From: a phage
Direction: 5' to 3' (one strand)
DNA length: 64,000 nt
Sequence record: PV419677.1
In this document: positions 62,790 through 63,245 of the stretch, piece after piece
How the letters are laid out: each line of letters starts with the position of its first letter
Numbering within the stretch: position 1 is the stretch's first letter
The notes under the pieces: model-generated
Seen by the model: only the letters and a program-made list of their open reading frames with translations
What the model was told of the DNA's origin: nothing
Databases searched by the model: none
Translations under genes and position numbers: made by a program

Positions 62790-63245
62790 CTACTTTAAAT
62801 CCGCCGACCAATTTAATTTTAGCGGTTCTTTATATTCACGGTCTAAAACAACCGGAATCTGGACTTCTCCTTTATACGTCAAAGGACCAACATTATAAGA
62901 CAATGTTATATGAGGAGTATAGTCCGGGAAATCATGTGTTGCGCCAATGGCTCGTGCATACATATGTCTGCAACTAAGATAATCTGAATCCAGTACAAGA
63001 ACCAGCGTGCTGCCGTCGTCGGTTTTCCATACTTCCAGGTGACCAGAGTTGGCTACTTCGAAACTACCGGAAGCAACAACATATGGAATATTTACTCTGG
63101 AATAACAAATAGTGGAATGGAATTTTTCGCGAGGAACGGGGTTAGGTACCTTAAGAGAGCGCTGGAGATTTTCCAGCGCATCAAGAGTTAATTCTGAAAA
63201 TTTGGCTGCAACATAAAGTCCTTCAGAGACTTCATTTAATGTCAT
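62790..63245 (-). CDS. 57B: 2H phosphoesterase at the gene 57B position (Acb1-like anti-CBASS nuclease candidate)
   Basis: 151 aa; two H-x-T/S motifs (FHSTI and PHITL); immediately downstream of 57A. Confidence 0.6.

Follow-up and report, generated by a model that had tools for sequence, protein, structure and literature searches.

Gene 57B of phage T4 was uncharacterized until Hobbs et al. (2022, PMC9117128) found that its product (NP_049750.1) degrades 3′3′-cGAMP and named it Acb1. The proof combined fractionation, recombinant enzyme, an H44A/H113A mutant, and a Δacb1 phage, and the comparison of wild-type T4 to the Δacb1 phage showed protection against CBASS in vivo; the discovery, the structure, and the in vivo test all date from 2022 (PMC9117128). 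Nine further homologs all cleaved 3′3′-cGAMP and cAAA. The data from T4 Acb1 and these nine homologs show that hydrolysis is metal-independent and acts on cyclic di- and trinucleotides that contain adenosine (3′3′-cGAMP, cUA as well as cAAA) and does not act on cGG or cA4 (PMC9117128). The structure of Acb1 from Erwinia phage FBB1 has a 2H phosphoesterase fold with an HxT/HxT catalytic tetrad (H44, T46, H113, and T115). In that structure Y12, W74, F107, and W147 stack on the ligand, E141 contacts the N6 of adenine, and residues 145–152 form a lid (PMC9117128). In the T4 genome, acb1 adjoins ipI, which encodes an anti-restriction protein, as would be seen in an anti-defense island (PMC9117128).

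We analyzed a stretch of 64,000 nucleotides of phage DNA (sequence record PV419677.1), which we will term the window. It belongs to a Gaprivervirus T-even phage. Near one end of the window is an ORF (acb1, Table 1) that is almost certainly the Gaprivervirus ortholog of T4 gp57B (Acb1), and hence an anti-CBASS 2H phosphoesterase. The original prediction had picked out this ORF for its FHSTI and PHITL motifs, both of which are present exactly as described, and had taken T4 57B to be Acb1, as Hobbs et al. indeed state (PMC9117128).

The assignment to the family comes from full-length homology. The product matches the Pfam profile for "Anti-CBASS protein Acb1" (PF23474) with 200.6 bits (the curated cut-off is 27; E = 1.2e-59), and residues 8–148 cover positions 1–143 of the 144 in the profile. 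(A search of NCBIfam, which does not have a model for the Acb1 family, gave no matches.) When aligned to T4 gp57B (NP_049750.1, from NC_000866), which is the check that the original prediction had proposed, 126 of 151 residues are identical (83%) without a single gap (E = 3e-99). Residue numbers in our protein are the T4 numbers minus one. The PDB sequence that matches best is that of Acb1 from Erwinia phage FBB1 (7T26/7T27): the two proteins have the same residue at 97 of the 140 positions that align (69%; E = 7e-63). The next matches are two divergent Acb1 entries (9Q2G and 9Q2Y, E about 1e-3). The alignment to chain 7T26_A extends over about 139–140 residues, and from this similarity the product is predicted to have the 2H phosphoesterase fold. 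We consider both the family and the predicted fold to be settled because the protein is 69–83% identical to orthologs that have been crystallized and biochemically characterized.

All nine of the catalytic and ligand-binding residues are conserved (Y11, H43, T45, W73, F106, H112, T114, E140, and W146 here; Y12, H44, T46, W74, F107, H113, T115, E141, and W147 in T4). In particular, the catalytic tetrad (H43, T45, H112, and T114) aligns without gaps, and the stacking aromatic residues (Y11, W73, F106, and W146) and the glutamate that contacts adenine N6 (E140) are identical to those of Acb1. The protein also extends through the C-terminal lid: it reaches residue 151 and ends with LNWSADLK, versus LDWADDLK in T4, again without gaps. 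Most of the 25 positions (of 151) that differ from T4 Acb1 are found near residues 123–127 and 145–148, in loops at the surface, and at the N-terminus. Some of them are beside the lid and its preceding β-strand (T123/Y124/K125, N145, and S147/A148).

At the nucleotide level, acb1 is 74% identical to T4 57B, as compared to 83% for the proteins. By the method of Nei and Gojobori, dN is 0.135 and dS is about 1.9–1.95, for a dN/dS ratio of 0.069. This ratio indicates strong purifying selection, and we do not regard acb1 as a remnant in decay.

The two HxT motifs, which lie within EKFHSTICY (H43 and T45) and YTPHITLSY (H112 and T114), were the starting point of the original prediction, and its 2H phosphoesterase signature holds up in that both align residue for residue with the Acb1 tetrad (H44/T46/H113/T115), whose crystal structure is a 2H fold. 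The bare count of such motifs is weak evidence for the identity of the gene, however. When we shuffled the protein while preserving its composition, 15% of the shuffles had loose H-x-[TS] triplets in two or more places, although only 0.3% contained two strict motifs with flanking hydrophobic residues (hydrophobic-H-x-[TS]-hydrophobic). Because loose pairs arise so often, the case for Acb1 rests on homology and not on the motifs. Given the full-length similarity to the Pfam profile, to the PDB sequences, and to T4 gp57B, the observation of 2H motifs goes far beyond chance.

Table 1. Features of the acb1 locus and related features elsewhere in the window (positions are those of the window).
Feature	Position	Strand	Basis
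acb1 (ortholog of gene 57B)	62790..63245	-	ATG-started ORF, 151 aa + stop
First catalytic HxT motif, H43-S44-T45 (H44 and T46 in T4 and FBB1); codons CAT TCC ACT	63111..63119	-	Residue mapping; role per PMC9117128
Second catalytic HxT motif, H112-I113-T114 (H113 and T115 in T4 and FBB1); codons CAT ATA ACA	62904..62912	-	Residue mapping; role per PMC9117128
C-terminal lid segment, residues 144–151, including W146 (W147; stacks on nucleobase)	62793..62816	-	Ungapped alignment to T4 and FBB1; lid per PMC9117128
Gene 57A (tail fiber assembly chaperone), immediately upstream of acb1	63245..63481	-	Pfam GP57 (PF17594), E = 4.6e-25; PHROG 1002, tail fiber chaperone
Gene 1 (dNMP kinase), 3′ part; N-terminus lies beyond the end of the window	63481..64000	-	Pfam DNMK (PF21448), E = 6.6e-50
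Four tandem small IP-like genes downstream of acb1 (92, 99, 90, and 110 aa)	61471..62726	-	MKTYxEF-type leaders
Fifth gene with MKTYxEF-type leader, near denV/e	50245..50547	-	Leader sequence
Acb2 / Vs.4 homolog, cyclic-oligonucleotide sponge, 92 aa	48777..49055	-	Pfam PF24729 (Acb2_Tad1_hairpin), E = 1.2e-15; PDB 7UQ2 "Vs.4", E = 4.6e-29
TATAAATA motif within gene 1, at 211 nt upstream of 57A	63692-63699	-	Motif scan
TATAAATA motif immediately upstream of the IP-like gene starting at 62385	62395-62402	-	Motif scan

The surroundings of acb1 also match those of T4 57B. The gene order is gene 1, 57A, acb1, and then genes for proteins that resemble the T4 internal proteins (IP-like genes), as compared to 1-57A-57B-ipI in T4. 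So, acb1 is in the conserved position, downstream of 57A and beside internal-protein genes, and the original prediction had correctly placed it there. Gene 1 is truncated by the end of the window: its Pfam match includes only positions 73–232 of the profile, and the ortholog in the Gaprivervirus phage EAWsc9 (PQ341120.1) is 678 nt long. (The 158-aa TTG-started ORF that is listed at the end of the window covers no more than the C-terminal two-thirds of the gene 1 product.) The stop codon of 57A and the start codon of acb1 share a single base (TAATG). Co-transcription and translational coupling of these genes are therefore probable.

The products of the four IP-like genes begin with MKTYQEFINE, MQTLHEFLVE, MKTFNEFFNE, and MNIKTYNEFLAE. 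We take such MKTYxEF-type leaders to be the capsid-targeting leader of the T4 internal proteins, in which case the block of four genes corresponds to the ipI slot of T4. Neither these four genes nor the fifth gene with this type of leader had any match in Pfam. Their products may be anti-defense proteins that are injected into the host. Two of the four are labeled "homing endonuclease" and "profilin" in EAWsc9, which look like mis-annotations. Also, the mechanically predicted ORF for one of them (62394..62762 on the minus strand, 122 aa) begins 12 codons before the likely true start. Starting at MNIKTYNEF... would give a protein of 110 aa (62394..62726), which fits the annotation of EAWsc9, and the match to PHROG 3966 begins at residue 15.

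We also looked for transcription signals around acb1. The gap of 63 nt between the stop codon of acb1 and the next gene contains a 7-bp inverted repeat (GUGUAGG...CCUACAC, 62751..62778 on the minus strand). We rejected this hairpin as a terminator: its fold is not unusual (z = −1.34; 21 of 200 shuffled sequences folded as well), and a terminator scan found no site with a T-tract there. A scan for sigma-70-like promoters near acb1 found 16 sites, versus 10.2 ± 2.9 by chance, which is no excess. Similarly, the motif TATAAATA, which resembles the T4 late promoter, occurs five times near acb1 (5.1 expected), and its count across the window is also at the level of chance. The occurrence of this motif inside gene 1 is at a different distance from 57A than in T4 (211 nt versus 356 nt). 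As the counts are those expected by chance and the distance of the gene 1 motif differs from that in T4, we dropped this motif as a candidate promoter and do not claim any promoter for acb1.

Our direct basis for assigning the role of Acb1 to this gene is its orthology, its intact catalytic and ligand-binding residues, its conserved gene order, and purifying selection. Its chemistry, its range of substrates, and its anti-CBASS phenotype we infer, by orthology, from the experiments with T4 and FBB1. If the protein acts as its orthologs do, then after infection it would bind the messengers that are made by the CD-NTases of CBASS systems (3′3′-cGAMP, cUA, cAAA, cAAG, and similar molecules with at least one adenosine). 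The four aromatic residues would stack on the nucleobases, the glutamate would read the N6 of one adenine, and the C-terminal lid would shut over the ligand. The HxT/HxT tetrad would then cut 3′ of an adenosine, without a metal and via a 2′,3′-cyclic phosphate intermediate, leaving a linear product. In the absence of its signal, the CBASS effector would stay inactive, abortive infection would not occur, and the phage could replicate.

We considered several other possibilities. First, the 25 substitutions could make the Gaprivervirus Acb1 functionally distinct from that of T4, for example by altering its preference among cyclic nucleotides so as to evade Panoptes and other decoy-based sensors, or by widening the range of signals that are degraded, jointly with the Acb2 sponge. 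We think that this is very unlikely. As to other literature, in the study of Panoptes, deleting acb1 from T4 had no effect on OptSE-mediated defense, although over-expression of Acb1 lowered colony formation (PMC12657218). Separately, cGAMP phosphodiesterases of poxviruses are reported to have an Acb1-like fold and active site (PMC12064943). Neither of these results changes our reading of the gene.

Second, the protein could belong to the Acb1 family but have a shifted range of substrates (for example, other cyclic signals or 2′-5′-linked ones), so that it counters a different signaling defense than T4 Acb1 does. As 17% of its residues differ from those of T4, and as some of these substitutions adjoin the lid and the β-strand before it, small shifts in kinetics or specificity are possible. 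A changed target seems highly unlikely, however, because every catalytic or ligand-contacting residue that has been reported is identical. Furthermore, Acb1 of FBB1, which at 69% identity is more divergent from our protein than T4's is, still cleaves 3′3′-cGAMP, as do all nine of the further homologs, which cleave cAAA as well (PMC9117128).

Third, acb1 could encode a generic 2H enzyme that acts on RNA (a LigT-like 2′-5′ RNA ligase or cyclic phosphodiesterase, with a role in RNA or tRNA repair) and that has no part in degrading immune signals. The description given for PHROG 755 is "RNA ligase," RefSeq gives the same name to T4 57B, and the product has a weak match to the Pfam family 2_5_RNA_ligase2 (PF13563; E = 0.24). 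But this match of 11.9 bits is well short of the cut-off of 27 bits for membership in the LigT / 2′-5′ RNA ligase family, and it involves residues 91–121 only, versus 200 bits across the full length for Acb1. The label of "RNA ligase" is a guess from the fold that predates Hobbs et al. (2022). T4 57B itself cleaves CBASS signals, and this activity is lost in Δacb1 T4 (PMC9117128). Also, the stacking aromatics and the adenine-reading glutamate that are specific to Acb1 are all present. Thus, we consider a generic RNA enzyme to be extremely unlikely.

Finally, the idea that the acb1 product works with gp57A in tail fiber assembly, which could be suggested by the historical name 57B, by the TAATG overlap, and by the adjacency of 57A and acb1 in all of the T4-like genomes that we examined, has a negligible probability, as the product is an enzyme whose active site is intact and whose known biochemical role is unrelated, 57B was uncharacterized before Hobbs et al. 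so that no role in assembly is on record (PMC9117128), co-transcription in the compact genome of T4 is no sign of a shared function, and viable Δacb1 phages of T4 have been built and replicated (PMC9117128; Panoptes study, PMC12657218).

Returning to the reading of acb1 as an anti-CBASS gene, the window also encodes a homolog of Acb2 (Vs.4), about 14 kb from acb1. Because homologs of Acb1 and Acb2 are both found, this phage carries both of the known anti-CBASS proteins of T4. Like T4, it would thus combine a degrading enzyme and a sponge against CBASS, and the pair bears on predicting the host range of this phage against strains of E. coli and Shigella that have CBASS, for example in phage therapy. 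In EAWsc9, the genes around the Acb2 homolog are annotated as hypothetical proteins only.

The acb1 gene of this phage is already known, in that an identical protein is annotated as Acb1 in GenBank, and it is a textbook ortholog. Across the 1.7-kb stretch around acb1, identity is 100% with Shigella phage fPSFA and 99.4–99.7% with several phages of Escherichia and Yersinia (99.7% for EAWsc9). The EAWsc9 protein (XLZ23998.1, "anti-CBASS protein Acb1") is 100% identical to ours. More broadly, tblastn found a homolog of acb1 in 1,479 phage records, in which it is labeled as "hypothetical protein," "RNA ligase," "RNA ligase/cyclic nucleotide phosphodiesterase," or "anti-CBASS Acb1-like protein." The family is still called "RNA ligase" in PHROG 755 (PHROGs v4) and in the RefSeq entry for T4 (NC_000866, 57B). 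The practical gain is in annotation, as many of the 1,479 records retain "hypothetical protein" or "RNA ligase."

How does this gene compare to the systems that have been described? The most distant are the divergent Acb1 proteins (9Q2G/9Q2Y, 165 aa) and the cGAMP phosphodiesterases of poxviruses, which have the family or fold and the HxT/S catalytic logic in common with acb1. The match to 9Q2G (E = 7e-4 over residues 7–118) shows a distant relationship in sequence, and in the poxvirus enzymes the lid is N-terminal instead of C-terminal as in Acb1 (PMC12064943). With Acb1 of FBB1 (7T26, apo; 7T27, with 3′3′-cGAMP), the alignment takes in the two HxT motifs, the cage of aromatic residues, and the tryptophan of the C-terminal lid. 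The differences are an indel of one residue in the loop that follows W73 and the first motif, which is HTT in FBB1 but HST here and in T4. T4 Acb1 resembles our protein from end to end, with no gaps and a difference in length of just one residue. The two also have identical functional residues and a common slot, with 57A on one side and the internal-protein genes on the other, and none of the 25 substitutions is at a reported functional residue. Around the gene, 57A and 57B overlap by 4 nt in T4 versus 1 nt here, and T4 has a single ipI downstream of 57B where this phage has its cluster of four IP-like genes. The closest of all are EAWsc9 (XLZ23998.1) and roughly 30 further phage records that are nearly identical, from which our gene differs in nothing of substance, although the labels vary.
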